The notes below the pieces were generated by a model that was not told the DNA's origin, ran no database searches, and was given only the letters and a program-made list of their open reading frames with translations. Positions 11,983 through 34,117 of a stretch of 64,000 bases of DNA are shown piece after piece. Source of the stretch: an uncultured Candidatus Binatia bacterium (GTDB lineage Bacteria; Desulfobacterota; Binatia; UBA9968; JAJDTQ01); contig OZ251459.1 in NCBI GenBank assembly GCA_965242525.1, forward strand, positions 4,032,001-4,096,000. The letters run 5' to 3'. Each line of letters opens with the position of its first letter. The stretch's first letter is position 1. The position numbers and the translations under genes were made by a program.

Positions 11983-12033
11983 GGCCGGGTCGGGATTCTG
12001 CGTCTGTGTCGAGAAAACTCGGAAGAAACTCCG

Positions 12034-12545
12034 GGCGCTTCAGGCTTTCGTGCGGGTTGTGACACTCCCCTCCCATGCGATGTGGTCCGATCCCCACCCA
12101 TTCCGACCATGCCGTCCTCGGTTTGGCGTCGCAGACGCCCTACCCTCCGCAGACGCCCCCTTCCGTCATTCCCGCGAAAGCGGGAATCCATCCGGTTTCA
12201 TCGCTCTCGTTGTACAACCCACTCCAGCTCGGATGACCCTTCTCGATCCACTCGATCTTCCTTGACCGATTCCGTTTCCGGACCGCCTTTTCTCTCCGGA
12301 TAGCGCTTTCCATGGGTTCAGGAACTTCGTTCCAACCAACCATGGCACAGTGATGCAGGGCGTCTCGAGGTTGGGTCGGAAGGACGGAAACACGGGAGAA
12401 TGGATGGATTCCCGCTTTCGCGGGAATGACGAAGGGTGGGGCATCTGCGGGAATGAGGGGAGTCGGCGTCTGCGGGGCAATGACCGCGTGTTCCTTTTCG
12501 CTCCCCTTTCCCTCCTGCCTTGCCCACACGAAAGCCGGAAGATCC
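12034..12545 (-). mobile_element. MITE-like element copy B carrying a decayed GIY-YIG nuclease between REP palindromes
   Basis: Ends GGCGCTTCAGGCTTTCGTGCGG (12034) and revcomp GGATCTTCCGGCTTTCGTGTGG (12545); subterminal arms match copy A. Confidence 0.75.
12195..12400 (-). pseudogene. GIY-YIG nuclease (UPF0213-like) remnant
   Basis: Translates VGWNEVPEPMESAIRREKAVRKRNRSRKIEWIEKGHPSWSGLYNE, resembling the family C-terminus LVWYE.H..M.SAI.REK.IK.W.R.WKI.LIE..NP.W.DLY; GIY/YIG motifs are lost. Confidence 0.7.
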
Positions 12546-12547
12546 CG

Positions 12548-12949
12548 CTAGCTCAGCTCGTCCCGACGCATGCTCAGCAGCACCGCTGCGCCCGCGGACC
12601 CCACCATCGCCATCAGGGTGTAAACCACCGCCAGGATGGTTTCGCCGCTGCCCGACGGCGGGTGGTAGCGCCAGTACATCGCCGAGTTCAGGATCACGTA
12701 GATGGCGTACGCGTGGGCCAGCCCGAGGGCGAAGCGCTTCATGTACCAGAGGCCCAGGCCGTACACCACCAGGTAAGCGCCGAAGGCCAGGCTCCACAGG
12801 AGGTTGTCGCCGCCCGCCAGACGGGTACCGAGCAGGACGAAGCCGCTCTCCCCGCGGAGGTCCAACGGCTTCAGGAGGTTCGAGACCGCCAGCAGCCAGA
12901 AGCAGATGGCGAGCCCGCAGAAGACCCGATCCCGTGGTGGTCCAGCCAT
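12548..12949 (-). CDS. Hypothetical membrane protein (about 4 TM)
   Basis: AAGGAGG RBS before MAGPPRDRVF; four hydrophobic segments. Confidence 0.75.
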   Translation of the reverse strand: MAGPPRDRVFCGLAICFWLLAVSNLLKPLDLRGESGFVLLGTRLAGGDNLLWSLAFGAYLVVYGLGLWYMKRFALGLAHAYAIYVILNSAMYWRYHPPSGSGETILAVVYTLMAMVGSAGAAVLLSMRRDELS

Positions 12950-13023
12950 GGTCGTCCTCCTTCCCGCGGCGGTCTCGTCACCGTCTCCGCGAACCCGGTC
13001 TCCGGGAGGGGCCTTCGGGCGCG

Positions 13024-13129
13024 CCGGGGCTATCCCGCCCGCCGGTGCGCCATCCACCCGCCGCTTCCCGGTAAGCGGGACGCCTACGGCCAGGACCGGG
13101 GCTATCCCGCCTGCCGGTGCGCCATCCAC
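13024..13129. repeat. 34-bp direct repeat duplicating the 3' end of the hydrolase gene
   Basis: ccggggctatcccgcc(c/t)gccggtgcgccatccac at 13024-13057 and 13096-13129. Confidence 0.75.
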
Positions 13130-13956
13130 GATCCGTCGGCCGCGGAGCGGAACAACTCGGCCAGCGCCGCGTTGACCGCCGCGGGCTCTTCCAGGGGCAG
13201 GGTATGCCCGGAGCGCGGCGCCACCGCGAGGGCCGCCCCGGGCGCGGTGCGCTTGAGGAAGACGCTGCCGTCCAGGCACGGGTCGTCCTCGTCGCCCACC
13301 ATCACCAGCAGCGGCGTCTCCAGGCGCGACAACGGCTCCTCCAGGTCCCACAGGGTCGGGCGCCGCCCCTGGACTTGGGACATGGTGAGGGCCAGCCCCG
13401 CGGCCGAGTGGTCGGCGAGGGCCTTCTCGAACTCGGCGAACCCGCGCGGGTCCTTGGCCTCGAAGGGTTTGCGCATGGGTTGGCGCGCGTACCGGGCCGC
13501 GGCCTCGGCCATGGGCTCCTCCCGGAACATGCGGGCCAGGTCCGCGCACAGGGCCTCCCGTTCGTCCCGCTGGTCGGGACGGGAGCCCCAGCCGCAGCCG
13601 ATGGCGGCCACCGACAGGCAGCGCTCGGGGTAGCGGATGGCCACGTGGAGCGCCGTATAGGCCCCCATGGAGTGCCCCACGATGTGGGCCCGCTCCAGCC
13701 CGAGGCCGTCGAGCACCGCCCGCACGTCCTCCCGGGCCGCGTCCTGGCCGTACGCTTCCGGCGTCTCGGGCACGTCCGACGGCAGGTAGCCGCGGGAGTC
13801 GAAGGCGATGCAGCGGTGGGAACGCGAGAAGAACCGCACCTGGGGCTCGAAGCTCCGGCGGTCGCCGGCGAACTCGTGGACGAACACGACGGGGACGCCC
13901 CGCCCCGATTCCTCGTAGTGGAGACGGACGCCGTCGGCTGCGGTGACGGTCGGCAA
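13102..13956 (-). CDS. Alpha/beta hydrolase
   Basis: DGVRLHYEESG, FVHEFAG, GHSMG nucleophile elbow, SGHTLPLEEP; TTG start after the upstream LLM gene. Confidence 0.88.
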   Translation of the reverse strand: MPTVTAADGVRLHYEESGRGVPVVFVHEFAGDRRSFEPQVRFFSRSHRCIAFDSRGYLPSDVPETPEAYGQDAAREDVRAVLDGLGLERAHIVGHSMGAYTALHVAIRYPERCLSVAAIGCGWGSRPDQRDEREALCADLARMFREEPMAEAAARYARQPMRKPFEAKDPRGFAEFEKALADHSAAGLALTMSQVQGRRPTLWDLEEPLSRLETPLLVMVGDEDDPCLDGSVFLKRTAPGAALAVAPRSGHTLPLEEPAAVNAALAELFRSAADGSWMAHRQAG

Positions 13957-13964
13957 CTGCGCCC

Positions 13965-15200
13965 TCAGGAAGCGGCTGCGGCGAGCGGCTCGTTGGTCAC
14001 GGGGTCCACGTCGTAGGGTCCCGGCAGACCGAGCTCGTCGGCGATCTCCCGGAGCCGGGGCATGACCTCCTCGCCCATGAGCTTCAGGGTCCGCATCTGG
14101 GCCTCGTGGGTCATGGCCCCGTCGCCCGTGCGGAAGATGATGATCCCCGGGCGCAGGGCTTCCAGGATGTAGCGCACCTTGGGGACCACGCTGTCGGGGG
14201 TGCCGACGATCATGCCGTGGGTCGCCACCTGGTCCTCGAAGGTGGCCCTGGCCCCTGCACGGGTGCGGCCCTCCGAGTCCGCGGCCACCATCTTGCGGCG
14301 AAGGGCCCGGGCGCTGCGGGTGGCGATGCCCGGGGGGCCCGCAATCCACGGCCGGGGCCTCTGGGCGCCGGGGTCGTAGGGGCTGCGGACCCCCATGGTC
14401 AGGGTCCGGCCCACCTCCATGGCCTTCTCTTCGGTCTCCTCCACGTGGAAGAAGAACATGAAGCCCAGGTGCTGGGGACCGGCTTCGTAGCCCTCTTCCC
14501 GCGCGGTGTCGTAATACACCTTGTACATCTGCCGGGTCAGGTCGATCTGGCTGGCCAGCATGATGTAGGGGTAGCGGCGCCGGGCCGCCCACTCCACCGT
14601 CTCCCGGCTGGAGGTTCCGGGCACCCAGATGGGCGGATGGGGTTTCTGGTACGGCACCGCCCAGGGGTTCACGTACCGGAAGTGGTAGTGCTTGCCCTCC
14701 CAGCGGAAGGGTCCCGGGGTGGTCCACGTCTTGATGAGGAAGTCGTGGGCCTCCTCGAAACGCTCCCGGTTGAAGTGCGGCGGGGCGTTGTGCGTCAGGC
14801 TCTCGCTGCCGCCGCCCCGGACCACGCCGGGGATCAGCCGGCCCCGGGAGACCACGTCGATCATCGCAAGCTGCTCGGCCAGCCAGAGGGGGTCGTCATG
14901 GATGGGAAGGATGTTGCCGAGGATCAGGATCTTGGCCCTGGTAGTGATGCGGGCGAGGATGGCGGCCTGGACGTTGGCCACCCCGTTCATGCAGAACGGG
15001 GCGCTGTGGTGCTCGTTGACCATGATCCCGTCGAAGCCCATCTCCTCGGCATAGACCTTCTCGTCCATGTAGCGGTGGTAGAGTCCGGCGGCGCGAAGGG
15101 GGTCGTATTCCCGGTTGCTCACCTCCATGACCCCCGACCCCCATTCCGCGGGCCAGTCCTCTTTCTGCCAGGGTGCTTCCGTAAAGTGGCCTATGAACAT
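13965..15200 (-). CDS. LLM class flavin-dependent oxidoreductase (luciferase-like)
   Basis: GFDGIMVNEHH, PLWLAEQLAMIDVVSRGRL, PYQKPHPPIW. Confidence 0.9.
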   Translation of the reverse strand: MFIGHFTEAPWQKEDWPAEWGSGVMEVSNREYDPLRAAGLYHRYMDEKVYAEEMGFDGIMVNEHHSAPFCMNGVANVQAAILARITTRAKILILGNILPIHDDPLWLAEQLAMIDVVSRGRLIPGVVRGGGSESLTHNAPPHFNRERFEEAHDFLIKTWTTPGPFRWEGKHYHFRYVNPWAVPYQKPHPPIWVPGTSSRETVEWAARRRYPYIMLASQIDLTRQMYKVYYDTAREEGYEAGPQHLGFMFFFHVEETEEKAMEVGRTLTMGVRSPYDPGAQRPRPWIAGPPGIATRSARALRRKMVAADSEGRTRAGARATFEDQVATHGMIVGTPDSVVPKVRYILEALRPGIIIFRTGDGAMTHEAQMRTLKLMGEEVMPRLREIADELGLPGPYDVDPVTNEPLAAAAS

Positions 15201-15292
15201 CGCGCCTCACCTCGCCGTCCCCTTCTCCGTGGAGGAAGGGGACTCGCAACGCCAGACTGCTGGCTGCCTGTCCGGGTCCCGCCCGGTCTCCG

Positions 15293-16090
15293 TCAACCTT
15301 CCAGGAACTCGACGACGGCCTCGGCGAACTCCTCCGGCTTTTCCATCTCGGGCATGTGCCCGCAGTCCTCGATCACCGCGGCCCGGGCGCCGGGTATGCC
15401 CTCCCGGTAGAGTTCGCAACTGCTCAGGGGGACGATGGCGTCCTGCCTGCCCCATACCAGCAGGGTCGGGGTCGCGATGGCCGGAAGGAGGCCGGGCAGC
15501 GTGATGCTGTGCATGTAGGGGCGCCAGACGTAGCGGATGGTCGCCTCCCGGTTGGTCTCCACCTGTTCGGCCTCCTCCGGGGTCCAGTCCCTGCCGAAGT
15601 GCTTCCGGTATTCGGGCGAGGCGAGGTCGTGGAACGACCGCTGGAACGCCTCCTTGGGGGAGTTCAGGAAGTAGTCCCAGATCTCTCCTTCCCGGGGCTT
15701 GACGCCGGCCGCTCCCACCAGGACCATCTTCGAGAAGATGTCGCTGTTGGCCGCGGCGAGCTCGGCCGCGGCCCAGCCTCCCAGGGAGAAGCCGACCACC
15801 CGGAGCGGGGTGGGCAGGCCGTAGTCCCGCACGAACCAGCTCACCCAGGCGGACAGGTCCCGGACCGACATCATCCATTCGGGCATGGACGAGGCGCCGA
15901 ACCCCGGCAGGGAGGGGACGTACACGGAGTAGCGTCGAGCCAGGAGCTCGTGGGCTTGCAGCCAGCCGGGCACCCCCAGCTCGCCGTGGAGGAGCAGCAA
16001 CGGCTCTCCGCCGCCCCCGCGCCGCATCTGCACGGACGCGCCGGCCAAGTCGAGGGTCTCTTCGATGAAAGCTGCGGACGTCGTGGTCAC
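15293..16090 (-). CDS. Alpha/beta hydrolase
   Basis: GGAGGA RBS then GTG; LLLHG, LPGFG, GFSLGG, CGHMPEMEKP. Confidence 0.88.
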   Translation of the reverse strand: MTTTSAAFIEETLDLAGASVQMRRGGGGEPLLLLHGELGVPGWLQAHELLARRYSVYVPSLPGFGASSMPEWMMSVRDLSAWVSWFVRDYGLPTPLRVVGFSLGGWAAAELAAANSDIFSKMVLVGAAGVKPREGEIWDYFLNSPKEAFQRSFHDLASPEYRKHFGRDWTPEEAEQVETNREATIRYVWRPYMHSITLPGLLPAIATPTLLVWGRQDAIVPLSSCELYREGIPGARAAVIEDCGHMPEMEKPEEFAEAVVEFLEG

Positions 16091-16410
16091 TGGCTCCTCC
16101 GGTGTCCTCCGGTGGTATGCGCGCGTCGCGGTGGGCTTTCCCGTGGCTGCATCCGGTCGTGGCCACTGGCTCCCCCGGTGCTGTGCGCCCGGTGCGCGCG
16201 TCGAGTCGCCTGCATCATAGACGGGCGCCGCGGGAACGTCAACGTCGCCTGCCGCCCCGGACCCGTACCGGACCCCGGCGGGGCGGGATGGGGTGGTGGC
16301 CGGGTTCGTCCCGTCGTCGCATGCCGCCCCGGATCCGGCAGGGCGTGACAGGGTACTCTGATCCATCGAGCCGTGCATGGATGTATCCCCTCACTCTGAC
16401 CTTCCTGTCC

Positions 16411-16449
16411 CCGTTCGTCCTGAGCGTAGCGAAGCGAAGTCGAAGGACG
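16411..16449. repeat. REP family 2 copy
   Basis: ccgttcgtcctgagcgtagcgaagcgaagtcgaaggacg. Confidence 0.85.
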
Positions 16450-16485
16450 CATTCTCCTTCCGGGATCGAGCAGGGTTTCCGAAAG

Positions 16486-18027
16486 TCACCCGCGCGGGTC
16501 CCGCGGCCCGGTGGATTCCATGAAGCAGCTCAGGACGAGGCCCGCGCCCGCGGCCGCGAACCCGGCCAGGAACGCCCACCAGAGGGCGTTGACGAGGGCG
16601 GCGGTCAACTCCGGCGCGAGGTCCGCGGGTATCAGCGCGCGGGTGGAGGGGTCCAGCAGGTTCTGCGGGTTCAGGAGCTTCCGGACCACCGGCTCCGGCA
16701 CGGATGCCTTCAGGTCCGCGGCCATGACCGTGAAGGCGGCGTTCATGCGTTGCAGCAGGATGCTGCCCATGAGGCTGATGACGAAGGCGCCGCCGATGGT
16801 CCGGAACAGCATCACCGTGGAAGTGGCGACTCCCAGGTGCCGGAACGGCGCCGCGCCCTGGGCGGCCACCAGCGCGGTGACGTTGACCATCCCCATGCCG
16901 GTCCCGGCCGCGCTCACCGCGGCGATCATGAGGGCCATGCCGCCGGCCTCCTCCAACAGCAGGAACGGCAGGTAGCCCGCCGCCATCAACGTCATGCCCG
17001 CGGCGCAGACCTTGCGGTAGCCCCAGGCCGGGGCCGCCCGGCCCGCGGTGAGGCTCCCCGCGGTCCAACCCACACTCAGGGGCAGCAAGGTCAGGCCGGC
17101 CAGCGCCGCGCTGCCGCCGAGGGCCCCCTGGACGTACAACGGCAGGAATCCGACGATGCCGAAGATGCCCATGGCCGCCAGCAGGCTGAGGACCGCGGGC
17201 CGGCTGTAGCGCTGCAGGCGGAACAGCGCCATGGGCAACAGCGGGTCCGCGGCCTTGCCCTCGATGAAGACGAAGAGCGCCAGCAGCAGGACCACCCCCA
17301 CCGCCACCGAGACGGATTCCGCGGTCACCAGGTCCAACTGGTTCGCCGCCGCCAGGAGCCCGTAGAACAGCAGCAACAGGGCGCTCAGCAGCGCCGCGGC
17401 CCCGCCCAGGTCCAGCGGCTGGCGCCGCGGCGCCGCGCGCTCCTCCCGGAACCCCAGGACGAAGAGTCCCGCGGCCAGTATCCCCAAGGGCAGGTTGATC
17501 CAGAAGATCCAGCGCCAACTCCAGTAGTCGGCCATGAGTCCGCCGCCCACCGGACCCAGCACGGAGGCGACGCCCCAGACGCTGGCGATGAGTCCCTGCA
17601 TCCGCGCCCGCTGGTCCGCGGGGAAGACCACCCCCACGATGATGAACGCGAGGGCATAGACCGCGCCGCCGCCCAGGCCCTGGACGGCGCGGAAGAAGAT
17701 GAGCTGCGGCATGCTGCGGGCGGCGCCGCAGGCCACCGAGCCGGCCACGAAGGCGCCGATGGCCAGCAACATGAGGAGACGCCGGCTGTACAGGTCCGAG
17801 AGCTTGCCGAAGACCGGCGTGGCCAGGGCCGACGTGAGCATGTAGGCCGAGAAGACCCAACCGTACAGCTCGATGCCGCCGAGGTTCGCCACCACTGTCG
17901 GCAGGGCGCTGCTGACGATGGTGGCGTCGATGGCGAAGAGGAAGACCGCCAGCATGACCCCCAGGACCGCCATGGGGACCCCGGCGGACTTCCTCGCGCT
18001 GCTCTCGATGCTTGACACGGTTCGCAT
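16486..18027 (-). CDS. MFS multidrug efflux transporter (DHA2/EmrB-QacA-like)
   Basis: DATIVSSALPT, WVFSAYML, GKLSDLYSRR, FRAVQGLGGG, WRWIFWINLP. Confidence 0.9.
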   Translation of the reverse strand: MRTVSSIESSARKSAGVPMAVLGVMLAVFLFAIDATIVSSALPTVVANLGGIELYGWVFSAYMLTSALATPVFGKLSDLYSRRLLMLLAIGAFVAGSVACGAARSMPQLIFFRAVQGLGGGAVYALAFIIVGVVFPADQRARMQGLIASVWGVASVLGPVGGGLMADYWSWRWIFWINLPLGILAAGLFVLGFREERAAPRRQPLDLGGAAALLSALLLLFYGLLAAANQLDLVTAESVSVAVGVVLLLALFVFIEGKAADPLLPMALFRLQRYSRPAVLSLLAAMGIFGIVGFLPLYVQGALGGSAALAGLTLLPLSVGWTAGSLTAGRAAPAWGYRKVCAAGMTLMAAGYLPFLLLEEAGGMALMIAAVSAAGTGMGMVNVTALVAAQGAAPFRHLGVATSTVMLFRTIGGAFVISLMGSILLQRMNAAFTVMAADLKASVPEPVVRKLLNPQNLLDPSTRALIPADLAPELTAALVNALWWAFLAGFAAAGAGLVLSCFMESTGPRDPRG

Positions 18028-18047
18028 GGCGGTCCTATTTAAGGGGC

Positions 18048-18287
18048 ATGCCCATCCTGAAACGCGGCCGCGCGGATCTCTGCTGCGAGGTCACCGGCAA
18101 GGGCCGGCCGTTGGTGTTCCTCGGCGAGACCGCGTGCGCCGGCGAGGCGTGGAAGACCTGCCCGGCGCCGGAGTCCTCCCGTGACCATCGGTGCATCACC
18201 CTGGATTACCGCAGCGCCGGGCGCTCCGGCAAGCCGTCCGTCCCCTGCACGCTTCGACTCCCGTTTGCGACGGCTTCGGCCGGCTGA
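18048..18287 (+). pseudogene. Truncated N-terminus of an alpha/beta hydrolase
   Basis: MPILKRGRADLCCEVTGKGRPLVFL...ITLDYRSAGRS parallels the N-terminus of the 26387 hydrolase (YYETHGQGEPLVF...HDPRGCGRS) and stops just before the rSAM gene. Confidence 0.65.
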
Positions 18288-18297
18288 CCAGGACGCC

Positions 18298-19524
18298 ATG
18301 AACGCGCTGCAGGTTTCCACCGTCATTGACACGGTGCTTCTCAAGGTCGCGAGTCGATGCAACCTCGACTGCAACTACTGCTACGTCTATCACATGGGTG
18401 ACGACGGTTGGCGCGCTCAGCCGAAGCGCATGCCCGCGGCGGTTCAACAGGCCGCGGTCCGGCAGCTTGGGGACCTTTACGTCCACCAGCGGCAGCCGTT
18501 CAGCGTCGTGCTGCACGGGGGAGAACCGCTGCTGTTGGGGGCCGATGGTTTGCGCGACTTCTGCAATCGTCTTCGCTCTGCGCTTCCGGCGCCCTGCGGG
18601 ATCCACGTCCAGACGAACGGCGTGCTCTTGACCGAGGAGATCATCGACGTCTTCGTCCGGTTCGACGTCGGGATCTCCGTCAGCATCGACGGCCCTCGGG
18701 ACCTCCATGACCGATTTCGTCTCGATCTCCGAGGAAGGGGGTCCCATGACCGGGTGCGGGAAGCCATCGGCCGGTTGACTGCCCGGAGCGACGCCCGTCC
18801 CTTGTTCGCCGGAGTCCTGGCGGTGATCGATCCCGGTTCCAACCCTGGATCCGTCTATGCCTCCCTCAAGGCCACCGGCGCCCCGAGCCTCGATTTCCTG
18901 ATCCGCGATGGAAACCATGCGCGTCTGCCGCCGGGGAAAACCAGCGTTGACTCGACCGAATACGGACGCTGGATGGTCGGCATGCTCGACGTCTATCTCA
19001 GGGACCCGGAACCGCCGCGTGTGCGCATCCTCGACGACATGCTCCGGGTCATCCTTGGCGGCCAGGCTCGGAAAGAAGGGGTCGGCGTCAATGACTACGG
19101 TATCCTGACCATCGAGACCGATGGTCGCATCAACAAGAACGACACGTTGAAAGTCGCCCACCCAGGCGCGGACCGGTTCGAACGGAACTCATGGTCGATC
19201 CTTTCGGATAGCCTGCTCGACGTCCTCCGCAGCCAGTCCTATGCAGACTATTACCGCCAGCAGCGCCCCACTGCCCTCGCTTGTCGCGCCTGTCCCGAGC
19301 GGAACGTCTGCGGGGGCGGGATGGTGGCGCACCGATGGAGCGACGATCGCGGTTTTGACAATCCGTCCGTCTTTTGCGCAGACCAGCTATTGCTGATAAG
19401 GCGTATGCGGGAATGGGTTGCGCGGCGCCAAACCACGAGAAAAGCGGAAGGAGACTCCCTTGGACAACAGGAAAGATTCCCCCGATACCTGGAAGCACCA
19501 GTCGGCGGAGAACTCCGAGTTTGA
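18298..19524 (+). CDS. Radical SAM/SPASM peptide maturase, cyclophane-forming (triceptide, YhhB-like)
   Basis: LKVASRCNLDCNYCY (CxxxCxxC), LHGGEPLL, QTNG, SIDGP, C-terminal CRACPERNVCGGG..HRW...NPSVFC; adjacent precursor with aromatic-X-X motifs. Confidence 0.88.
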   Translation: MNALQVSTVIDTVLLKVASRCNLDCNYCYVYHMGDDGWRAQPKRMPAAVQQAAVRQLGDLYVHQRQPFSVVLHGGEPLLLGADGLRDFCNRLRSALPAPCGIHVQTNGVLLTEEIIDVFVRFDVGISVSIDGPRDLHDRFRLDLRGRGSHDRVREAIGRLTARSDARPLFAGVLAVIDPGSNPGSVYASLKATGAPSLDFLIRDGNHARLPPGKTSVDSTEYGRWMVGMLDVYLRDPEPPRVRILDDMLRVILGGQARKEGVGVNDYGILTIETDGRINKNDTLKVAHPGADRFERNSWSILSDSLLDVLRSQSYADYYRQQRPTALACRACPERNVCGGGMVAHRWSDDRGFDNPSVFCADQLLLIRRMREWVARRQTTRKAEGDSLGQQERFPRYLEAPVGGELRV

Positions 19525-19645
19525 GCCAAAGTACGTCGATAGCGTTGCCTTGACCCGCCTCATCGAGGAGGTACGGAACCGGGGTGACGGCGAAATCGGC
19601 TCACCGACGGCCTATAATCGCACGTACCACCGTCACAACAGGTGA
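19460..19645 (+). CDS. RiPP precursor peptide (YhhA-like triceptide precursor), 61 aa
   Basis: GGAGA RBS then TTG at 19460; leader ...DSVALTRLIEEVRN..., core SPTAYNRTYHRHNR-stop; overlaps the rSAM 3' end. Confidence 0.85.
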   Translation: MDNRKDSPDTWKHQSAENSEFEPKYVDSVALTRLIEEVRNRGDGEIGSPTAYNRTYHRHNR

Positions 19646-19660
19646 TCGTCCGGGGCTTCC

Positions 19661-20278
19661 ATGCAGCCGTCCTGCGAGACGTCGCCTTGGTGCGCCCTTG
19701 GCCCGGTAGATCTCCGTGTTTCCCCTTTCCGCTACTTCCTGGCGCCGCGTTGCCTTGCGCCCGGTATGGAGCGGGCGCTCCTCGAATGGTTCGAGACCGA
19801 CGCGCCCTGGCGGCTCGTGGAGACCGATTTCTACCAGCAGTACGAATTCGACATGCTCCACATGGCCCTACCGACAAGCGTAGCTCCATTGATCTCGCCG
19901 GGGAACCTCACGGCGCTTCGTCGGGAAATGGCGGATATTTTCGACGTAGCCTTCGACGACCGGATCATGCTGGTAGCGCACAAACTGACATCCGGCCAAC
20001 GGATCGCCATTCACAACGACCATCTCGTTGGTGAAGAGACACATCGCTTGACCGTTCAGCTCAACCGGGGCCTTGATGATGAAGACGGCGGGCTCATCAT
20101 GTTGTTCAACAGCTTCGATCCCGCAGACGTCCATCGGATCATCCGTCCGGTCACCGGGAGCGGCATCGGGTTCGAGATCGGCGAGAACTCCCATCACGCG
20201 GTTTCCCGCCTGCACTGCGGAGAACGTTACACGCTCGTCTATTCCTTCCATGCTCGGCGGAACTCAGGAGACGGTTAG
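19661..20278 (+). CDS. 2OG-Fe(II) oxygenase (YhhC-like RiPP tailoring enzyme)
   Basis: HND (HxD), HHAVS distal His, RYTLVYSF 2OG-binding Arg; directly follows the precursor. Confidence 0.85.
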   Translation: MQPSCETSPWCALGPVDLRVSPFRYFLAPRCLAPGMERALLEWFETDAPWRLVETDFYQQYEFDMLHMALPTSVAPLISPGNLTALRREMADIFDVAFDDRIMLVAHKLTSGQRIAIHNDHLVGEETHRLTVQLNRGLDDEDGGLIMLFNSFDPADVHRIIRPVTGSGIGFEIGENSHHAVSRLHCGERYTLVYSFHARRNSGDG

Positions 20279-21104
20279 AAAGGCGATCGTTCGATTCGCG
20301 GAGCCGTGGCTCCCCGGTCTCGCCGGTCCGTTGACGGCGAGCGCGTGGCAGGGGCTTGCGCACCACGGATTCGTCCCGTCGAACTACGGGACACACCGGT
20401 GGCTGGAGAGAGGTCCTGCGGCTGAGCGTCTGATTCTCGCTACGATTGAAATGGCTGGCCCTCTCGAGTGCCGAATCGAAGCGTTACCGGAGTCAAGTCG
20501 CACGCGCTACGAAAGAATCGGTCTGAGGTTCCCCGAATCCATCTCCATCGAGACCCATGTCGCAGCCTTGCGACAAGCACTCTCTCTCATTGCCCTGGTT
20601 CCGAGCCTCTACGCCGCCATTGCGGCTTACCTGCAAACCTTGCACGTTCTGGGATCCCCTGGCAAGGATCTCGACGTCAGTCACAGCGATCCGGATGTGC
20701 CTTTCTCGATTTTCACCTCGGTTCCGTCCGCCTGTCCGAACGGAGCCCTGCGTCTCGCCGAGTCCATCATCCACGAATGCATGCACCTCCAACTCACCAT
20801 GATCGAGACACTGCTGCCGCTCGTGGGCACGGAGGGCAGGGGGGCTTTCTCTCCTTGGCAGCAACGACAGCGACCACTCCGCGGCATCCTGCACGGCCTG
20901 TATGTTTTTTCCGTGATCGATGCATGGTTCCAAGCTCTGGACCAAGGCGACTTTCTAGCGCTGGAGAGCAGAACCTTCGTTGTCAAGCGTCGAGGAGAGA
21001 TCGCGCACGAGGTCGCACAAGTGGCCGATCTCGTTACCGTCGAAGGGTTGACGGAGTGTGGGCGAAACCTGGCATGTGGTGCTCTCCGGCGTTGCAAGAT
21101 TTGA
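20250..21104 (+). CDS. HExxH-domain protein (aKG-HExxH peptide beta-hydroxylase-like)
   Basis: SHSDPDVPFSIF, LAESIIHECMHLQL, SPWQQRQRPLRGILHGLYVF; likely start MLGGTQE overlapping the upstream gene. Confidence 0.82.
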   Translation: MLGGTQETVRKAIVRFAEPWLPGLAGPLTASAWQGLAHHGFVPSNYGTHRWLERGPAAERLILATIEMAGPLECRIEALPESSRTRYERIGLRFPESISIETHVAALRQALSLIALVPSLYAAIAAYLQTLHVLGSPGKDLDVSHSDPDVPFSIFTSVPSACPNGALRLAESIIHECMHLQLTMIETLLPLVGTEGRGAFSPWQQRQRPLRGILHGLYVFSVIDAWFQALDQGDFLALESRTFVVKRRGEIAHEVAQVADLVTVEGLTECGRNLACGALRRCKI

Positions 21105-21184
21105 TCTTATGGAAACCCTGATCAACTTTATAGGGAGAGCGCGAGGGAATACCTTCATGCATGGCTCGATTGATCAAAGTGCCC

Positions 21185-21943
21185 TTACGCGAGAAAGTCT
21201 GCTGCCATGGCACTGAATTGTGCCGTTGGTTCCACTGCCGCGGCAAGCAGGCTACGAGCTTCGTCCCGAGTTTTGACGGCCTTTGCATCCGAATAGCCAT
21301 CCAGGAGTTGAGATATTACCGTCAAGTACCTGATCCCGTTCAGACAGCTCCAGCGAGCATCTATCAAGGCTGGCCGATTGAGGCCGGCAAGATCGATCGT
21401 CGTTCGTCCGCGAGTCGTCGAGCTCTCAGCAATTTCATTTTGAAATTGTATGTGCCCACGAGGATCATCCGTTCCACCCGGGTCAAGGATGAGCGGTTTT
21501 TCGCACGAGAGATCATCAGTATGGGAGCGTGCGCGCAGTGCGGGGTCGGACAATGGAAAAAGCGAACCCTTGGTCGAGTTGCAAATGCTGCAGGAATAAT
21601 ACAGGTTCTTCCAGGAGTAAGCTAGCCAGTAATACCCTGGATATAGAGCTTTCGAGCCTTTGCGCTGTTTCACGGCCCCCTTGGGTCGGTAATGCTCGAC
21701 GTCCCCGGGGGCATATGCATCGAACTTGCCTTCACAAAAACAGCATTTCCCGTGCTGGTCCGTCTTCAGTGCTTTCTTGATGGCTTTATGACCGTAGATT
21801 TTCGGCTCAAAGCAGAATTGCTTCGTTCCATTTCGAAACTCATGGCTATGCGCTTCGTAAGCTTGGCAATCTCGTTTGGTGCGATCAGTGCTCGCTTTCG
21901 CAAGTTTCGCAGGGGTGGACGACCGTTTATGGATTCGGATCAT
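21185..21943 (-). CDS. HNH endonuclease (Septu PtuB / retron-effector-like)
   Basis: KCCFCE, DVEHYRPK, WLAYSWKNLYYSCSICN; ATGA-coupled to the upstream ATPase. Confidence 0.82.
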   Translation of the reverse strand: MIRIHKRSSTPAKLAKASTDRTKRDCQAYEAHSHEFRNGTKQFCFEPKIYGHKAIKKALKTDQHGKCCFCEGKFDAYAPGDVEHYRPKGAVKQRKGSKALYPGYYWLAYSWKNLYYSCSICNSTKGSLFPLSDPALRARSHTDDLSCEKPLILDPGGTDDPRGHIQFQNEIAESSTTRGRTTIDLAGLNRPALIDARWSCLNGIRYLTVISQLLDGYSDAKAVKTRDEARSLLAAAVEPTAQFSAMAADFLA

Positions 21944-23316
21944 GACGAAAGGTTCCCTGGCTGAAGAAGCTCGGCTGCCTTGCGTATGACTTCCATGGCT
22001 TTTTGGTCTTCAGGCGATTCTGCGGTGGGTAGTTCAAGAGCCCGCCGGTCCAAATCGGCGAGTTCCTCGCGTTCGGCCTTCGAGAGCCTCTGTTTCTGGC
22101 GCAAGGCAACACGGCGCTTCTGTTGCTCCACGGTCTCAGGCGGTCGCGCTGATTCGAAGCCGAAGAGATCGCTTGTGAGAACCTGGTCCAGACGCCAGCT
22201 TCTGATGACGGCAGGATCGTTTTCGATTGTCACATGGTCCTTCCGCCATCGGACGACGGCCAAGTTTTGGCTCAGTGAGCTCTGCGCCATGAGCGGGCTG
22301 TGCGCAGTGGCGATGAACTGAACGTTGGGAAAATGGCCGGTAAGATGCTCACGAATCTCCCGCTGCCAGCGCGGATGGAGATGGAGGTCGATTTCGTCAA
22401 CGATCACGATGGCCGGTTCCTTGAAGGGGTCGGAACTTTCCGGGTATTGCTCGATGAGCCTCCAGGCGATGTCCATCGTCAAGGCAAACATCGTCTGGTA
22501 GCCAAGGCTCAACTGATCGAGAGGCACTTCTCCCGAAGGGGTCCTCACGTGAACTCCGGTTCGATCAGAGATGTAAGCCGTACTCCTCGGGCCAAGTATC
22601 CTGACGTCTCGGGGATCCTGGATGTCCGGGAGGATCTCGGCAAGCATAAACGTGAGGCTGTCGAGAAGTTTCCTGGCGCGCTGGCGTTCTTCAGGGGTGT
22701 GACCTTTTGTCAACGAAGCATATTCCAGATCGCACAGGTTCTTTTCGGCATCATAGAGTTCGGACTCGACCCTGAATAATGACTGAACCGGGTCTATTTC
22801 AGGCGGTCGGTGACGCTCGGTCTTTGGGTGGCGTCCCGCGCCGTAGGCCAGGATAAAAGGTGGTTCCTCGTGGTACCTGGGGGCATCTCCACCGGGATCA
22901 ACATCCGTGATGTCGCCGTCCTTGCGTTTGATGGCAAGGGTTGTCGAAATGGTTCTGGGTTTACTGGTTCCGGGTTTACGCCGTTTTGGCCCCGCCAATG
23001 GCAATCCAACCGAAAGAGACGCCTTCAGTTGCACCTCCGCATCGATGCCGGATCGCGCCAACGCGCTCAGCACACGGTTTTCCTCTCTCACCAATTCGGG
23101 TTGGATATTGTCCTCGTCAGGGTTGAACTCCGGGCGCATGTACGCCAAGCATTGGAGTAGCGTGGTCTTGCCGGCGCCGTTGTCGCCTATGACGAGGGTC
23201 CACTGAGCGGGCCGGCCGTCGTCGTCGGTGAGGTCCAACTCCTGCCGTTCGCCGAAGCAGCGGACGTTTTCGAGCGACAGTTTCCGAAAGTAAATCGGGT
23301 TGGCTTTTCTGGACAT
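21940..23316 (-). CDS. ABC-type AAA ATPase (Septu PtuA-like)
   Basis: Walker A GDNGAGKTT, LSLGYQ signature, IVDEIDLHLHPRWQ, QFIATAHSP. Confidence 0.85.
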   Translation of the reverse strand: MSRKANPIYFRKLSLENVRCFGERQELDLTDDDGRPAQWTLVIGDNGAGKTTLLQCLAYMRPEFNPDEDNIQPELVREENRVLSALARSGIDAEVQLKASLSVGLPLAGPKRRKPGTSKPRTISTTLAIKRKDGDITDVDPGGDAPRYHEEPPFILAYGAGRHPKTERHRPPEIDPVQSLFRVESELYDAEKNLCDLEYASLTKGHTPEERQRARKLLDSLTFMLAEILPDIQDPRDVRILGPRSTAYISDRTGVHVRTPSGEVPLDQLSLGYQTMFALTMDIAWRLIEQYPESSDPFKEPAIVIVDEIDLHLHPRWQREIREHLTGHFPNVQFIATAHSPLMAQSSLSQNLAVVRWRKDHVTIENDPAVIRSWRLDQVLTSDLFGFESARPPETVEQQKRRVALRQKQRLSKAEREELADLDRRALELPTAESPEDQKAMEVIRKAAELLQPGNLSS

Positions 23317-23394
23317 GGGCCACCGAAGTCAAGCATGCCGTCGATCACCATCAGGCGCCCGCGCGCTTTGCGGCGCCGCTCGCGCCAGCGGGAC

Positions 23395-26193
23395 CTACTC
23401 CTCCCTCGGCGGGAACTCGAACGTGACCTTGCCGGCGTCGTCGAGGACGAGCCAGGCGGCGAAAGTGCGGCCGGATCGGGAGGAGACGAAGCCCTCCAGC
23501 AGGTCGGTCTTGCCCTCGGACAGGAGCTTGGCCATCTGGGCTCGGTCCACGGGCTGCTCCAGGATCACCGTCCCGGACTTGAACTTGCAGGGCTTGGTCT
23601 CCGCCTGGGACTTCTCGCACAGGTACCGGGAGTCCCACTCGAAGACCCGGCTCCGGCAGCGGGGGCACGGGCCCAGGGGCTCCTGCCCGGTGAAGTCCGC
23701 CTTGGGCGCGGGTTTGTCCCGTTTGGCCGCGGTCTTCCTGGCGGGGCGCGGCTCGAACTCGAACCCTACCTTGCCCTGCTGCAACGCGAGGAACGCCTTG
23801 AACGAGCGGCCGGTCCTGGACGAGACGAACTGGGGCAGCAGGTCGGTCTTGCCGTCGGCCAGCAGCTTGGCCATCTGCTCCCGCTCCACCGGTTGCCGGA
23901 GGATGATCTTGCCGGACGAGAACTCGCAGGTCCGCTGTTCGCCCACGGCGTTCTCGCACACGTAGCGCATGGGCAGCTCGAAGACGCGCCCGGCGCACCG
24001 GGGGCACGGCCCCAGGGGCTCCTGGCCGGTGAAGTCTTCGTTCTGTTCTGCCTGGCCGTCCCCGTTGCGCGGTTCGTTGCCGAAGTCGAAGGCGATCCTG
24101 TGATCGGGGGACAGTTGCAACACCGCGTCGAACGGCCGGCCCTGGCGGCTGCGGAACCCCTGGAGCGGCCCGACTTGGCGATGCTCCACGAGCGCCGCGG
24201 CCTCGTCGGCGCTCAGCAGCCGTCCGGCCAGGATCTTGGGCAAGGTGAAGTCGCAGTTCGCGCACTGGAAGTTGCGGTACTTTTCGTGCACCTCGCCGGC
24301 GCACTTGGGACACGGCGCCGAGAGCGAGCCGAAGTCCCCCGGGATGGTGTCGTGCTCGTACTGCCGCGCCCGGTCCACGATCTGGCGGGTCATCTCGGCG
24401 ATCTCGCCCATGAACTCGTCGCGGCTCTTCTTCCCGCCCTGCATCTGGAAGAGCTGGTACTCCCAGTTGCCGGTGAGCTCGGGCCGGGTGAGCTCCCGCA
24501 CGCCGAGGCCGTTGAGCAGCTCCATGAGCATGAACGCCTTGGGGGTGGCGTGCAGGTCCTTGCCCTCCCGGATGAGGTAGTCCTCGTCGAGGAGCCCCTC
24601 GATGATGGACGCACGGGTGGCGGACGTGCCGAGCCCCTTGCCCGCCATGGCCGTGCGCAGGTCCTCGTCGGTCACCAGCTTGCCGGCCCCTTCCATGGCG
24701 CCCAGCAGCGTGGCCTCGGTGAAGCGCGCCGGCGGCCGGGTCCGGCTCTGCTTGACCTCGACCTCGCCGGCCTCGACCTCCTCGCCCGCCCGGACCGGCG
24801 CCAGGCTGGCCTCGTCCGAGGACTTGGAGGCGTCCCTGCCGTGGACTTCCATCCAACCGGCCTTGACCATGACCTTGCCCGCGGTCTTGAACGGCTCCCC
24901 TTCCACCCGCGTGATCCGGGTGGTCTCCAGGAACTCGGCCGCGGGGTAGAAGACGGCCAGGAAGCGCCGGGCCACCAAGTCGTAGATCTTCTGCTCGGTC
25001 TCGTTGAGGCGCCTGGGCGCTTCGGTGGTGGGGATGATGGCGAAGTGGTCCGACACCTTGGCGTCGTTGAAGACCCGTTTGTCGGGCTTGACCCATCCCT
25101 GGCTCAGGATGGCCCCGGCGAACGGCGCGTAGCTCGTGTTCCCGAGCATCCGGAGCGAGTCCTTGACCGTGGCCACGTAGTCTTCCGGCAAGGCCCGGGA
25201 GTCGGTGCGCGGGTAGGTGAGGACCTTGTGGCGCTCGTACAACGCCTGGGCGATCTGCACGGTGCGGTTGGCGCTCAGGCCGAAACGGGCGTTGGCTTCG
25301 CGCTGGAGGCTCGTGAGGTCGAACAGGGGCGGCGGCGCCTGCCGGACGGGCTTGCTCTCCTCGCTCACGCTGCCCGGCTTGCCCAAGCACTTCTCCCGGA
25401 CGGCCTCGGCGGCGGCCTGCTCCCAGAACCGCTCGGCCCGGGCGTCGGGCTGGTCGTCCCGCTTCCGGAACCCCTCGTCGAACCAGCGCCCCTGGTACGC
25501 GCCCCCTTCGGACCGGAAGGTGGCGACCACCTCCCAGTAGTCCACGGGCCGGAAGTCCCGGATGGCGGCCTCGCGCTCCGCCACGATGGCCAGGGTCGGG
25601 GTCTGCACCCGCCCCACGGTGGTCTTGTAGAAGCCCCCCGGCTTGGAGTTGAACGCGGTCATGGCCCGGGTGCCGTTGATCCCCACCAGCCAGTCGGCCT
25701 CGGAGCGGCTCAGGGCGGCGTCGGCCAGGGGCAGCATCTCCTCGTCCTCGCGGAGCTTCACGAAGCCGTTGCGGATGGCGTCGGGGGTCATGGACTGGAG
25801 CCAGAGCCGCTTGATGGGTTTCCTGGCCTTGGCGTGGCGGACGATGTTGCGGAAGATCAGCTCGCCTTCCCGTCCGGCGTCACAGGCGTTGACCAGGTCG
25901 TCCACGTCCCTGCGCTTGATGAGCTTGACCAGCAGCTTGAGCCGGGAGGCGGACTTCTGGATGGGCTTCAGGTCGAAGTAGGGCGGGATCACCGGCAGGT
26001 TGGCGAAGCTCCACTTGCCCCGCTGGGCCTCGGCCCCTTCCGGCGGGACCTGCTCCAGCAGGTGGCCCACCGCGGACGACAACACGTAGTCGTCGCTCTC
26101 GTAGTAGTCCTGGCGCCGCTGGAAGCCGCCCAGGGCCCGGGCCACGTCCGCGGCCACCGATGGCTTCTCCGCGATGATGAGTGATTTGCCCAT
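23395..26193 (-). CDS. topB: DNA topoisomerase III with C-terminal Zn-ribbon/Toprim_Crpt repeats
   Basis: IIAEKPSVA, NACDAGREGELIF, GRVQTPTL, catalytic LTYPRTDS; duplicated DFTGQEPLGPCPRC modules. Confidence 0.93.
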   Translation of the reverse strand: MGKSLIIAEKPSVAADVARALGGFQRRQDYYESDDYVLSSAVGHLLEQVPPEGAEAQRGKWSFANLPVIPPYFDLKPIQKSASRLKLLVKLIKRRDVDDLVNACDAGREGELIFRNIVRHAKARKPIKRLWLQSMTPDAIRNGFVKLREDEEMLPLADAALSRSEADWLVGINGTRAMTAFNSKPGGFYKTTVGRVQTPTLAIVAEREAAIRDFRPVDYWEVVATFRSEGGAYQGRWFDEGFRKRDDQPDARAERFWEQAAAEAVREKCLGKPGSVSEESKPVRQAPPPLFDLTSLQREANARFGLSANRTVQIAQALYERHKVLTYPRTDSRALPEDYVATVKDSLRMLGNTSYAPFAGAILSQGWVKPDKRVFNDAKVSDHFAIIPTTEAPRRLNETEQKIYDLVARRFLAVFYPAAEFLETTRITRVEGEPFKTAGKVMVKAGWMEVHGRDASKSSDEASLAPVRAGEEVEAGEVEVKQSRTRPPARFTEATLLGAMEGAGKLVTDEDLRTAMAGKGLGTSATRASIIEGLLDEDYLIREGKDLHATPKAFMLMELLNGLGVRELTRPELTGNWEYQLFQMQGGKKSRDEFMGEIAEMTRQIVDRARQYEHDTIPGDFGSLSAPCPKCAGEVHEKYRNFQCANCDFTLPKILAGRLLSADEAAALVEHRQVGPLQGFRSRQGRPFDAVLQLSPDHRIAFDFGNEPRNGDGQAEQNEDFTGQEPLGPCPRCAGRVFELPMRYVCENAVGEQRTCEFSSGKIILRQPVEREQMAKLLADGKTDLLPQFVSSRTGRSFKAFLALQQGKVGFEFEPRPARKTAAKRDKPAPKADFTGQEPLGPCPRCRSRVFEWDSRYLCEKSQAETKPCKFKSGTVILEQPVDRAQMAKLLSEGKTDLLEGFVSSRSGRTFAAWLVLDDAGKVTFEFPPREE

Positions 26194-26386
26194 GTCCTCG
26201 ACCCCCGCCCGGAGAAGCGCGCGCCGCGGCGCGCCCTCCGTCCCTCATGCACAGTGCATATGTATGATCGAGGCATACCTGTCAAGGCGCGGGGGCGAGC
26301 CGTTCGCGGTAGGGGGCGGATGGGTGTAAGAAGGGGGCGCGGGGAACGGAGGCCCGTTGCCCGGCGCTCCAGGGAGGACCGAGCCC

Positions 26387-27214
26387 ATGCCCCACGTCAA
26401 GTGCCCCACCGGCGTCGAACTCTATTACGAGACCCACGGACAGGGGGAGCCCCTGGTCTTCGTGCCGTCCACCGCCTACTCCGGCGAGGTCTGGAAGCCG
26501 TCGCAGATGCCGCTGGCGGAGTCCCTGAACCTGGTCTTCCACGACCCGCGGGGGTGCGGGCGCTCGGTGGCGCAGCAGGGCGTCTATACCATCGAGCTCA
26601 TGGCCATGGACATCGTGGCGCTCATGGACCATCTCGGTTGTCCGTCCGCCCACTTCATCGGCCACTCCATGGGGGGCCGCATCGCGTTGTCCCTGGCCCA
26701 GAACTTCCCCGGACGGGTCAAGAGCCTGATCATGGCGGCCGCGGGCTCGGGGACCGCGGGCCGGGCCGGACCGGACTGCGTGCCCGGCCTGCCGCACCAG
26801 CTCGTGTACGAGCTGGTGGAGATGGGGTTCGAGAAGTTCGTCCGGGACGAGATCGTGGAGTCCGACACCTTCTTCACCGCGGACTACCGGGCCGCCCACC
26901 GCGCCGAGGTCGAAGCGTTCTACAGGCTCGCCTGGGAGACCCACGCCAGGCTGCCGGAGTTCATCCACCTGGTCATGGCGCGGCACAGCTTCGAGGGCAC
27001 CCATCGGCTGGGCGACGTCCGGGCGCCCACCATGGTCCTCATCGGCGACGGCGACACGGTGGGGAGCAACCACGTGGCCCAGGCGCAGGTGCTGGCCGAC
27101 CGCATCCCGGGCGCGGAGTTGAAGGTCCTGGAGGGGCAGACCCACGGGTTCTTCTGGCAGGACCCGGAAGGGACCAACGACGTGATCCTGTCCTGGGTCC
27201 GGCGCCACAGTTGA
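26387..27214 (+). CDS. Alpha/beta hydrolase
   Basis: GGAGG RBS; DPRGCGRS, GHSMGG, THGFFW. Confidence 0.88.
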   Translation: MPHVKCPTGVELYYETHGQGEPLVFVPSTAYSGEVWKPSQMPLAESLNLVFHDPRGCGRSVAQQGVYTIELMAMDIVALMDHLGCPSAHFIGHSMGGRIALSLAQNFPGRVKSLIMAAAGSGTAGRAGPDCVPGLPHQLVYELVEMGFEKFVRDEIVESDTFFTADYRAAHRAEVEAFYRLAWETHARLPEFIHLVMARHSFEGTHRLGDVRAPTMVLIGDGDTVGSNHVAQAQVLADRIPGAELKVLEGQTHGFFWQDPEGTNDVILSWVRRHS

Positions 27215-33784: not shown

Positions 33785-34117
33785 CTACGCCGGTCCAGGC
33801 TCCGGATTACGGGAGCGATTGCGGTCCTTCCTGAGATCATCGATGTTGACGACACGACCATACTCGTCGACGAGTGTGGCCGTGCGGGGTTTCCTCATCT
33901 CGTACAGCGCCTTGCCTTGGCCATTGAAATAGCTTTGGCAGACGGGTTCATCTCGAAAGAAGTGGAGTATTGCTTCAGGACCTTCTTCGGAACGGAGGGT
34001 CAATGAACCAGCCTCTGCGCCATGAGTATCCCACAGGATCAAACGGTAATGATCCGCCGTCTTCTCCACTTCGAGTCTGCCCCAGGGCTGCTTCAGGTCA
34101 TAGTAGGAAGTGCTCAT
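33785..34117 (-). CDS. Hypothetical protein (110 aa) inside the BREX operon
   Basis: ATG overlaps the stop of the upstream AlbA gene (ATGA); balanced protein-like composition, unlike the GC shadow ORFs. Confidence 0.65.
   Translation of the reverse strand: MSTSYYDLKQPWGRLEVEKTADHYRLILWDTHGAEAGSLTLRSEEGPEAILHFFRDEPVCQSYFNGQGKALYEMRKPRTATLVDEYGRVVNIDDLRKDRNRSRNPEPGPA

Follow-up and report, generated by a model that had tools for sequence, protein, structure and literature searches.

We analysed a 64,000-nucleotide stretch of contig OZ251459.1 (assembly GCA_965242525.1, positions 4,032,001-4,096,000) from an uncultured Candidatus Binatia bacterium, here called the window. At positions 18298-23316 it carries six genes, all intact, in two convergent sets: yhhB, yhhA, yhhC and an aKG-HExxH gene (aKG, alpha-ketoglutarate), which specify a module for a peptide made on the ribosome and modified after translation (RiPP), and ptuB and ptuA, which specify the ATPase-nuclease pair of Septu. 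In related loci of many phyla the pair PtuAB adjoins the yhh genes and belongs to a PtuA lineage of its own, or is exchanged for effectors of other families. The arrangement suggests a candidate kind of bacterial immune system in which a modified peptide would be the control element.

Genes of the block

18298..19524, + strand: yhhB, radical S-adenosylmethionine (SAM)/SPASM peptide maturase of 408 aa, predicted to form cyclophanes (NF041707)
19460-19645, + strand: yhhA, precursor peptide of 61 aa (NF041705)
19661-20278, + strand: yhhC, 2-oxoglutarate (2OG)-Fe(II) oxygenase of 205 aa, predicted peptide Asp/Asn beta-hydroxylase (NF041706; Pfam 2OG-FeII_Oxy_3)
20250-21104, + strand: aKG-HExxH-type peptide-modifying enzyme of 284 aa, motif HECMH (TIGR04267)
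21105..21184, no strand: 80-bp spacer from the HExxH stop to the ptuB stop, between the convergent yhh and ptu sets
21185-21943, - strand: ptuB, HNH nuclease of 252 aa (PADLOC PDLC00339)
21940-23316, - strand: ptuA, ABC/SMC-type ATPase of 458 aa (PADLOC PDLC00304; Pfam AAA_21 and AAA_15)

A first-pass annotation, made from the letters of this DNA, had read the first set as four coupled genes for a radical SAM/SPASM protein, a 61-aa precursor, a 2OG oxygenase and an HExxH protein; all four are present and intact and score above the NCBIfam cut-offs. YhhB reaches 492.1 bits against NF041707 (cut-off 445, profile positions 1-367 of 369), YhhA 52.9 bits against NF041705 (cut-off 36), YhhC 240 bits against NF041706 (cut-off 150) and the aKG-HExxH enzyme 95.3 bits against TIGR04267 (cut-off 40), with HECMH in its translation. 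The YhhB cysteines C21, C25 and C28 (CxxxCxxC) and C329, C332, C338 and C360 are invariant across 19 homologues, and the protein scores 339 bits against the FxsB subfamily model. The yhhA gene starts with a TTG codon, 6 nt downstream of GGAAGGAG, and encodes the leader helix SVALTRLIEEVRN and the C-terminal core AYNRTYHRHNR, which contains three aromatic-x-Arg motifs (Y-N-R, Y-H-R and H-N-R); N-terminus, leader and core are conserved in relatives. Neighbouring genes overlap by 65 nt (yhhB/yhhA), 29 nt (yhhC/HExxH) and 4 nt (ptuA/ptuB). As described in the cited parts of the respective reports, YhhB cross-links Tyr-C3 or His-C2 to Arg-C-beta (PMC11002830), YhhC yields erythro-beta-hydroxy-Asp (PMC12186529), and aKG-HExxH enzymes catalyze side-chain hydroxylation and are able to cleave the backbone oxidatively (PMC12636437). 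Elsewhere in the same genome, outside the window, a second radical SAM protein, within a 752-aa open frame, is matched by the YhhB model at G000:C1:409713-410252 (111 bits, well under the cut-off) and may be another peptide maturase.

PtuB matches PDLC00339 with E 4.3e-88 (profile 1-253 of 261), and its residues E83, H84, N113, N122 and C67 are invariant in 50 homologues, with C70, C118 and C121 nearly so. PtuA matches PDLC00304 with E 7.6e-145 (profile 3-441 of 444); invariant in 57 homologues are its Walker A (G43-K49), signature (S269/G271) and Walker B (D306/E307) residues and H338. The PtuA family profile matches the solved PtuA chains 9n69, 9e8z and 8ee4 (E 1e-35 to 1e-39), and the PtuB family profile matches solved retron and Septu PtuB chains. 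The pair had been called Septu-like in the first-pass annotation; its ATPase-HNH identity holds, and the label understates a full-length match to the PADLOC PtuA and PtuB models. The 80-bp distance that the annotation gave for this convergent pair is exact, and the block is AT-richer than its flanks, as it had stated: the guanine-cytosine (GC) content is 0.53-0.61 across 19-23.5 kb and 0.68-0.74 on either side (1-kb windows).

Linkage of yhh and PtuAB in related loci

A GTDB scan with one genome per species, run from an alignment of the 19 YhhB homologues, yielded 80 loci with flanks of up to 10 kb per side (YhhB identity 43-91%, open reading frames (ORFs) called mechanically). They come from at least ten phyla, namely Binatota, Nitrospirota, Acidobacteriota, Pseudomonadota, Bacteroidota, Chloroflexota, Gemmatimonadota, Actinomycetota and others; by record title, cultured carriers include strains of Sphingomonas, Stakelama, Mesorhizobium, Bradyrhizobium, Cupriavidus and Mucilaginibacter. 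By tblastn with the window proteins, YhhC is found in 79 loci, HExxH in 74 and YhhA in 73, and PtuB and PtuA adjoin yhh in 60 and 59, respectively. PtuAB always lies directly beside yhh, either downstream and convergent (45 loci), upstream and co-directional (8), upstream and divergent (4) or downstream and co-directional (2), and the precursor gene stands before or after yhhB. All-against-all clustering of ORFs from the 80 loci and the window gives 81 sources for YhhB, YhhC and HExxH, 61 for PtuB, 60 for PtuA and at most 8 for every remaining non-shadow family; no transporter or peptidase is conserved in this set. The adjacency of yhh and PtuA (59/80 loci) exceeds chance, and YhhB and PtuA co-diversify, their distances being correlated with a Mantel r of 0.74 that none of 999 permutations equalled.

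These counts bear on two earlier statements. The first-pass annotation had named a lack of enrichment of defence genes near Yhh homologues as its refutation, and the outcome is strongly to the contrary: PtuAB is found at 59 of the 80 loci and another effector, in the corresponding place, at 13 more. It had also described the cluster as exporter-less, which holds in that no transporter or peptidase is conserved across the 80 loci and the window, and needs the qualification that an efflux pump of the major facilitator superfamily (MFS) stands next door, though in the flank.

An ordinary triceptide cluster and a stand-alone Septu pair might share a mobile island by hitch-hiking, or as an addiction module stabilising the island, with host pumps exporting the peptide. 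Several features are in keeping with this: the GC content of the block lies below that of its flanks, transfer across phyla is clear, some loci have integrases, Tn7-like genes or insertion sequences nearby, the DHA2-family MFS pump adjoins the block in the window, and sister PtuAB pairs work as two-gene units. However, linkage is maintained through four arrangements and at least seven same-position effector replacements, just 7 of the 80 loci have the MFS gene, which is situated beyond the truncated hydrolase at the block edge, no exporter or peptidase family is conserved, and the core peptide seems conserved far beyond what is usual for secreted antimicrobial RiPPs. The counts also argue against yhh adjoining effectors no more often than other island genes do. 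We consider this explanation improbable.

A dedicated PtuA lineage

We built a PtuA tree of 99 rows (quick IQ-TREE run, LG+G4, support by the Shimodaira-Hasegawa-like approximate likelihood ratio test (SH-aLRT) only, midpoint root for drawing). A single group (SH-aLRT 96) takes in all 59 yhh-linked rows and, besides them, L097 (locus numbers with L are ours), whose contig ends too early to test for linkage; all 27 testable unlinked rows fall outside this group. Because the tree separates linked from unlinked PtuA, the yhh-linked PtuAB is a dedicated offshoot of Septu.

A further sampling started from PtuA. Among 401 Sphingomonadaceae genomes, 7 have matches at E 1e-20 or better; the three strong full-length matches (35-43% identity) all adjoin yhh, and the four weak ones belong to Septu pairs of other kinds, which have no yhh. 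Scanning metagenomes with the PtuA profile yielded 80 loci at 25-47% identity, of which only L098, L103 and L107 have yhh adjoining; L098 and L103 fall inside the yhh-linked clade, and the partial PtuA of L107 was left off the tree. Several metagenome pairs at 37-40% identity lack yhh, and the tree resolves them as lying outside the yhh-linked clade. In this small sample (Sphingomonadaceae, metagenome contigs and the tree), no PtuAB of the yhh-linked lineage was seen without yhh.

Exchange of effectors

PtuA is absent from 21 of the 80 loci, whose neighbours were examined by Pfam and PADLOC scans and then by tblastn. They contain:

L034, L036, L038, L039, L067: SIR2-domain protein of 667-716 aa, divergent and immediately upstream of yhh
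L037, L040, L065: protein with DUF4062 and TPR, about 555 aa long, placed as the SIR2 protein is
L072, L074, L075, L077, L080: KAP-like NTPase and RdrB-like adenosine deaminase, co-directional (L077 cut by the contig end)
L044: Sel1-DUF2971 protein, where sister loci have PtuAB
L005 (related Binatia), 11645-17037: Mu-like phage genes (Mu F, portal, terminase) after a truncated yhhC, with HExxH and PtuAB lost; this yhh system seems to have been interrupted by a prophage
L053 (Dehalococcoidia), 11304-13163: insertion sequences with DDE transposase genes; yhhB and a yhhC fragment are left
L071, L082: contig ends
L073: PtuB fragment only
L078, L079 (Neisseria): YhhB and YhhC only, with no HExxH and no effector by tblastn (the right flank of L078 is just 540 bp)

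A recognisable suicide-type effector thus stands beside yhh in 72 of 80 loci (PtuA in 59, other types in 13), and tblastn found two effector types together in none of the 80. Each type is one homologous family across its loci, and there is no BLAST similarity between types. A tree was also built for YhhB (78 rows, without the three loci whose YhhB is partial; again a quick IQ-TREE run with SH-aLRT only and a midpoint root for drawing), and on it the effector type changes at least seven times, with SIR2 arising at least three times and DUF4062-TPR three times. Sister pairs differ in type, as in L067 (SIR2) and L069 (PtuAB), or L039 (SIR2) and L040 (DUF4062-TPR). One tight YhhB clade mixes Binatota, Nitrospirota, Actinomycetota and Acidobacteriota, and the module therefore moves across phyla. 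The peptide stays nearly identical under every effector type, both in its leader (S-x-A-L-x-R-L-I-E-E-V-R-N) and in its core ((A/S)-Y-N/D-R-x-Y/H/F-H/N-R-H-N-R, with the consensus also given as YNRxΩxRHNR).

Two variants of the module occur among the loci with other effectors. In each of two Paracoccaceae loci with KAP and deaminase (L077:1257-2951 and L080:9995-11707) a single ORF, 564-570 aa long, encodes YhhB fused to YhhC, and an extra 367-aa ORF, with no PADLOC match at E 1e-5 or better, lies between yhhB and yhhC in a gammaproteobacterial locus (L072:11175-12278).

Swappable and mutually exclusive effectors beside a single conserved, seemingly signal-making module, together with a peptide unchanged across effector types, could point to an activating signal: a peptide made or completed only upon infection that turns on PtuAB (or, in its stead, SIR2, DUF4062-TPR or the deaminase), in the manner of the small molecules of CBASS (cyclic oligonucleotide-based antiphage signalling system) and Thoeris. 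One effector type has TPR repeats, a typical peptide-binding fold, and the cited part of Kaur et al. 2020 (PMC7159879) predicted a 'peptide toxin or signal' for the Fxs modules, which are related. Against an activator, hhalign and Pfam find no common receptor domain among the effector types (3-5 sequences each); permissive Pfam scans of the SIR2 C-terminal halves give only non-significant TPR-like hints (E 0.04-0.18, 3-5 sequences), and in a PDB profile search of the SIR2 effector the SIR2 domain is the sole match (likewise from 3-5 sequences). A peptide that is encoded by a gene and needs a radical SAM enzyme to mature would in general also be a slow and unamplified signal, and relics of the PtuAB lineage that had lost yhh would be harmless and should persist, yet none was seen in our small sample. 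We regard activation as rather doubtful.

The invariant and strongly cationic core suggests a conserved cellular or viral target, and the Arg/His-rich cyclophane peptide might itself be antiviral or toxic, for example by binding nucleic acid or the ribosome, with the neighbouring enzyme as an independent second arm. The Neisseria-type clusters, in which the RiPP genes do their work with no effector, are in line with such parallel arms, and the cited part of Kaur et al. allows for a 'peptide toxin' (PMC7159879). Parallel arms would not predict a yhh-only PtuA lineage that co-diversifies with YhhB, however, and leave the strict mutual exclusivity of the effector types unexplained; we rate them a poor bet.

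A proposed mechanism

A peptide-linked defence system was what the first-pass annotation had proposed, and the coupling that it assumed gains support from the effector changes on the YhhB tree (at least seven) and from the dedicated PtuA lineage; its mechanism we still only infer. Comparative genomics establishes this coupling of the yhh module and PtuAB, which very probably is functional, and a role in defence or conflict is fairly likely. Our tentative proposal is that the six genes are one conflict (anti-phage) system of two modules, in which a modified cytoplasmic peptide would control PtuAB, most likely as a guard in the manner of retrons; that control takes the direction of inhibition is a guess to which we lean with reserve.

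In the first module, YhhB would form three-residue cyclophanes at the YhhA core motifs Y-N-R, Y-H-R and H-N-R, and YhhC and the aKG-HExxH enzyme would hydroxylate the peptide, which the latter may also trim. The absence of a conserved exporter or peptidase fits an intracellular peptide: with neither of these dedicated to it, the product would stay in the cytoplasm. There the peptide, alone or with its enzymes, would hold the second module, the dedicated lineage of the Septu pair PtuA-PtuB, inactive, much as reverse transcriptase (RT) and multicopy single-stranded DNA (msDNA) do in type I-A retrons. During infection the peptide would be destroyed or its supply would stop, for example by host shut-off, by a loss of SAM or 2-oxoglutarate-dependent maturation, or by proteolysis, and the freed PtuAB nuclease would cleave DNA or tRNA, so that the infection is aborted.

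We favour restraint over activation because of the retron precedent, because the effectors show no shared receptor domain, and because yhh occurs without an effector (it is intact in L078 and L079, and in L073 with its PtuB fragment only) whereas no yhh-free member of the PtuAB lineage was seen; not one of the three points is strong.

The surroundings bear on a defence role. In the window a type I BREX (bacteriophage exclusion) system stands 5-29 kb from the block. PADLOC scans of 14 of the 59 PtuAB-type loci, chosen across the tree, find another named defence system within 6 kb in five (PglW, ThsB, Dsr2, a type I restriction-modification system with KwaB, and CBASS) and ambiguous matches in two. 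The flanks of loci without PtuAB contain a type ISP restriction enzyme, a Gabija-like helicase, an ABC-3C system, Shedu, Lamassu-like and Schlafen genes, HipA and RES toxin domains, integrases and Tn7-like genes.

A broader and more speculative version, which we think unlikely as it stands, would make the Yhh module a portable peptide-based immune sensor, the protein counterpart of retron msDNA, that silences a suicide effector for as long as the peptide is continuously matured. Maturation would depend on SAM, iron and 2-oxoglutarate enzymes, and a stop in supply would trip the effector. The trigger would be phages that shut off host synthesis or destroy SAM, and the same sensor would join PtuAB, SIR2, TIR-like-TPR or RADAR-like deaminase effectors (RADAR, restriction by an adenosine deaminase acting on RNA). 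Destruction of SAM is a phage counter-measure against methylation-based defences such as BREX, which in the window begins 5 kb from the block.

Several observations weigh against the guard proposal and the coupling that it presupposes. The linkage can come from co-transfer on a single mobile island, and the yhh and ptu modules are convergent in 45 of 59 loci and therefore on separate transcripts. Close sister pairs such as L106 and L099 (39% identity) occur on their own, so that PtuAB in general needs no peptide. Of the 59 clade members (window included), 57 come from YhhB-first sampling and are yhh-linked by construction, which leaves an unbiased PtuA-first support of just 6 of 6 testable cases, and the trees rest on quick searches with SH-aLRT alone. 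A sensor domain shared by the effectors was not detected by hhalign, with probabilities of at most 2% for SIR2 against DUF4062-TPR, SIR2 against PtuA and KAP against SIR2 (alignments of 3-5 sequences). Elsewhere the RiPP pathway is self-sufficient: the Neisseria loci L078 and L079 have YhhB and YhhC and, by tblastn, neither HExxH nor effector. In 7 of the 14 scanned flanks PADLOC gives no other match, and that count has no background control. The published YhhABC work, in the parts cited, used the three genes alone (PMC12186529, PMC11002830).

Apart from these points, the stand-alone pair of L106 adjoins Schlafen-like and methylase-Mrr genes.

Relation to known systems

Septu is a two-gene system that works alone. 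The window pair shares with type I Septu full-length PADLOC matches for PtuA and PtuB, intact motifs and a 4-nt gene overlap, and the family profiles match solved Septu PtuA (8ee4, E 2.6e-35) and PtuB (8ee7, E 1e-4). It differs in that its lineage is not stand-alone: 59 of 59 testable clade members lie beside yhh, on a branch of their own apart from 27 unlinked relatives.

Retrons pair one conserved module with many effector types. As in the type I-A retrons (Eco7/Ec78, Ec83), PtuAB is here joined to a co-encoded partner module, and the PtuA profile of the window family matches retron PtuA chains with E of about 1e-39. Unlike them, the block and its neighbours have no RT domain or Rfam family, and the partner is a peptide-modification module; the NCBIfam equivalogs of retron Ec78 are far from reached (PtuA 130.1 bits against 500, PtuB 43.9 against 150). 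According to the cited parts of PMC12673091 and PMC12475279, PtuAB is kept in check in these retrons by RT-msDNA; once a phage nuclease has cut the msDNA, PtuAB cleaves a host tRNA.

With the known Yhh cluster the window shares YhhA, YhhB and YhhC above the NCBIfam equivalog cut-offs and a core with Tyr/His-x-Arg motifs. The triceptide cluster YhhA/B/C was reportedly described by Sugiyama et al. in JACS in 2022. The two Neisseria loci of our set lack HExxH and an effector, whereas the window type adds aKG-HExxH and PtuAB.

The closest prior art is the study of Kaur, Burroughs, Iyer and Aravind (2020, eLife; PMC7159879), the cited part of which ties Fxs peptide-processing modules in silico to VMAP/FtsH ternary conflict systems. 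As far as that part shows, the Fxs systems likewise combine a small peptide with a conserved C-terminus, a radical SAM-SPASM protein (FxSxx, a sister family to YhhB) and an HExxH 'metallopeptidase', coupled to effectors that include TIR and TPR proteins. They differ in being actinobacterial, with vWA-MoxR-VMAP cores and AP-ATPase effectors, whereas yhh loci conserve no such core, occur in many phyla and have PtuAB, SIR2, DUF4062-TPR or KAP-like NTPase and deaminase as effectors; both are known from computation only. Of the 80 related loci only 3 have a DUF4062-TPR effector, and the window has none.

CBASS, Thoeris and Pycsar (pyrimidine cyclase system for antiphage resistance) also combine a conserved module with mutually exclusive suicide-type effectors (nuclease, SIR2, TIR-like), which in the yhh loci are exchanged between close relatives. 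The yhh module, in contrast, makes a ribosomal peptide rather than a nucleotide, and no shared receptor domain was found in its effectors.

The component families, Yhh triceptide genes and Septu PtuAB, are already known. In our literature search no paper connected triceptides or RiPPs with Septu/PtuAB or SIR2 effectors, or Yhh with Septu, although a passing mention in the primary Yhh paper or in supplements is possible. Apparently new, and not found in print, are the combination of Yhh with a dedicated PtuAB lineage and its exchange for SIR2, DUF4062-TPR or KAP-deaminase effectors. To our knowledge, triceptides (three-residue cyclophane peptides) have a well-studied enzymology and no known biological role. 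Their exclusive and conserved pairing with suicide-type immune effectors gives them a testable one. If the peptide does control PtuAB, a ribosomal modified peptide would be a new control element in phage defence, beside nucleotides and msDNA, and there would be at least two recruitments of PtuAB as an effector, one by retrons and one by a peptide module. The portable sensor, if true, would be RiPP-controlled immunity of a new class and would give triceptides their first biological role. With six genes in about 5 kb the system is compact, and the natural effector swaps are ready comparisons.

Boundaries and surroundings of the block

16486-18027, - strand: DHA2-family MFS efflux gene, just upstream, beyond the hydrolase remnant
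18012-18287: alpha/beta hydrolase remnant of 91 aa, at the left edge of the low-GC block
23395-26193: topB, right boundary of the block

The limits earlier set at the truncated hydrolase and topB agree with these positions. In the relative L005 the hydrolase at the same place is 266 aa long; a separate intact hydrolase lies at 26357-27214 of the window, and tblastn matches this downstream hydrolase in 5 of 80 related loci.

As the missing exporter, the MFS pump was rejected: tblastn matches it in 7 of 80 related loci, of which only three, from near relatives, are close. Being rare among related loci and lying outside the truncated hydrolase, it belongs to the host flank and not to the block. 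Membership of topB was rejected likewise, as tblastn matches it in 5 of the 80 loci, in each of which the host synteny is the same.

No RT had been noted at this locus, and the nine ORFs scanned from 16486 to 26193 indeed contain no Pfam RT family. Between 16000 and 27500 no Rfam family matches at E 1 or better, bar one chance-level small RNA match at 26949-27051, Rfam coverage of retron RNAs being incomplete. A promoter and terminator scan of 17900-23500 gave counts not above those of shuffled sequences and no terminator within the 80-bp spacer. The window has no tRNA, and no flanking repeats around the block are convincing as island ends.

The closest relatives of the window among the fetched loci are from Candidatus Binatia genomes. 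Three loci labelled Acidimicrobiales (L012), Thermodesulfobacteriota (L013) and Syntrophobacterales (L016) share the window topB at 80-84% identity, and in L013 and L016 the downstream hydrolase is shared as well, at 89% (the contig of L012 stops inside topB); this reflects either inconsistent labels or the transfer of a larger region.

A type I BREX system occupies 28.5-52.5 kb of the window (28494-52462, - strand), 5-29 kb from the block. Its genes encode BrxL, PglZ, BrxC, BrxB, BrxA and two full-length PglX (38230-41799 and 42059-45454), and between PglX and PglZ it includes:

34117-35571: 485-aa ORF with weak matches to genes associated with prokaryotic Argonaute (pAgo)
35402-38230: Ppl-like gene (PADLOC Ppl, E 5.7e-134)

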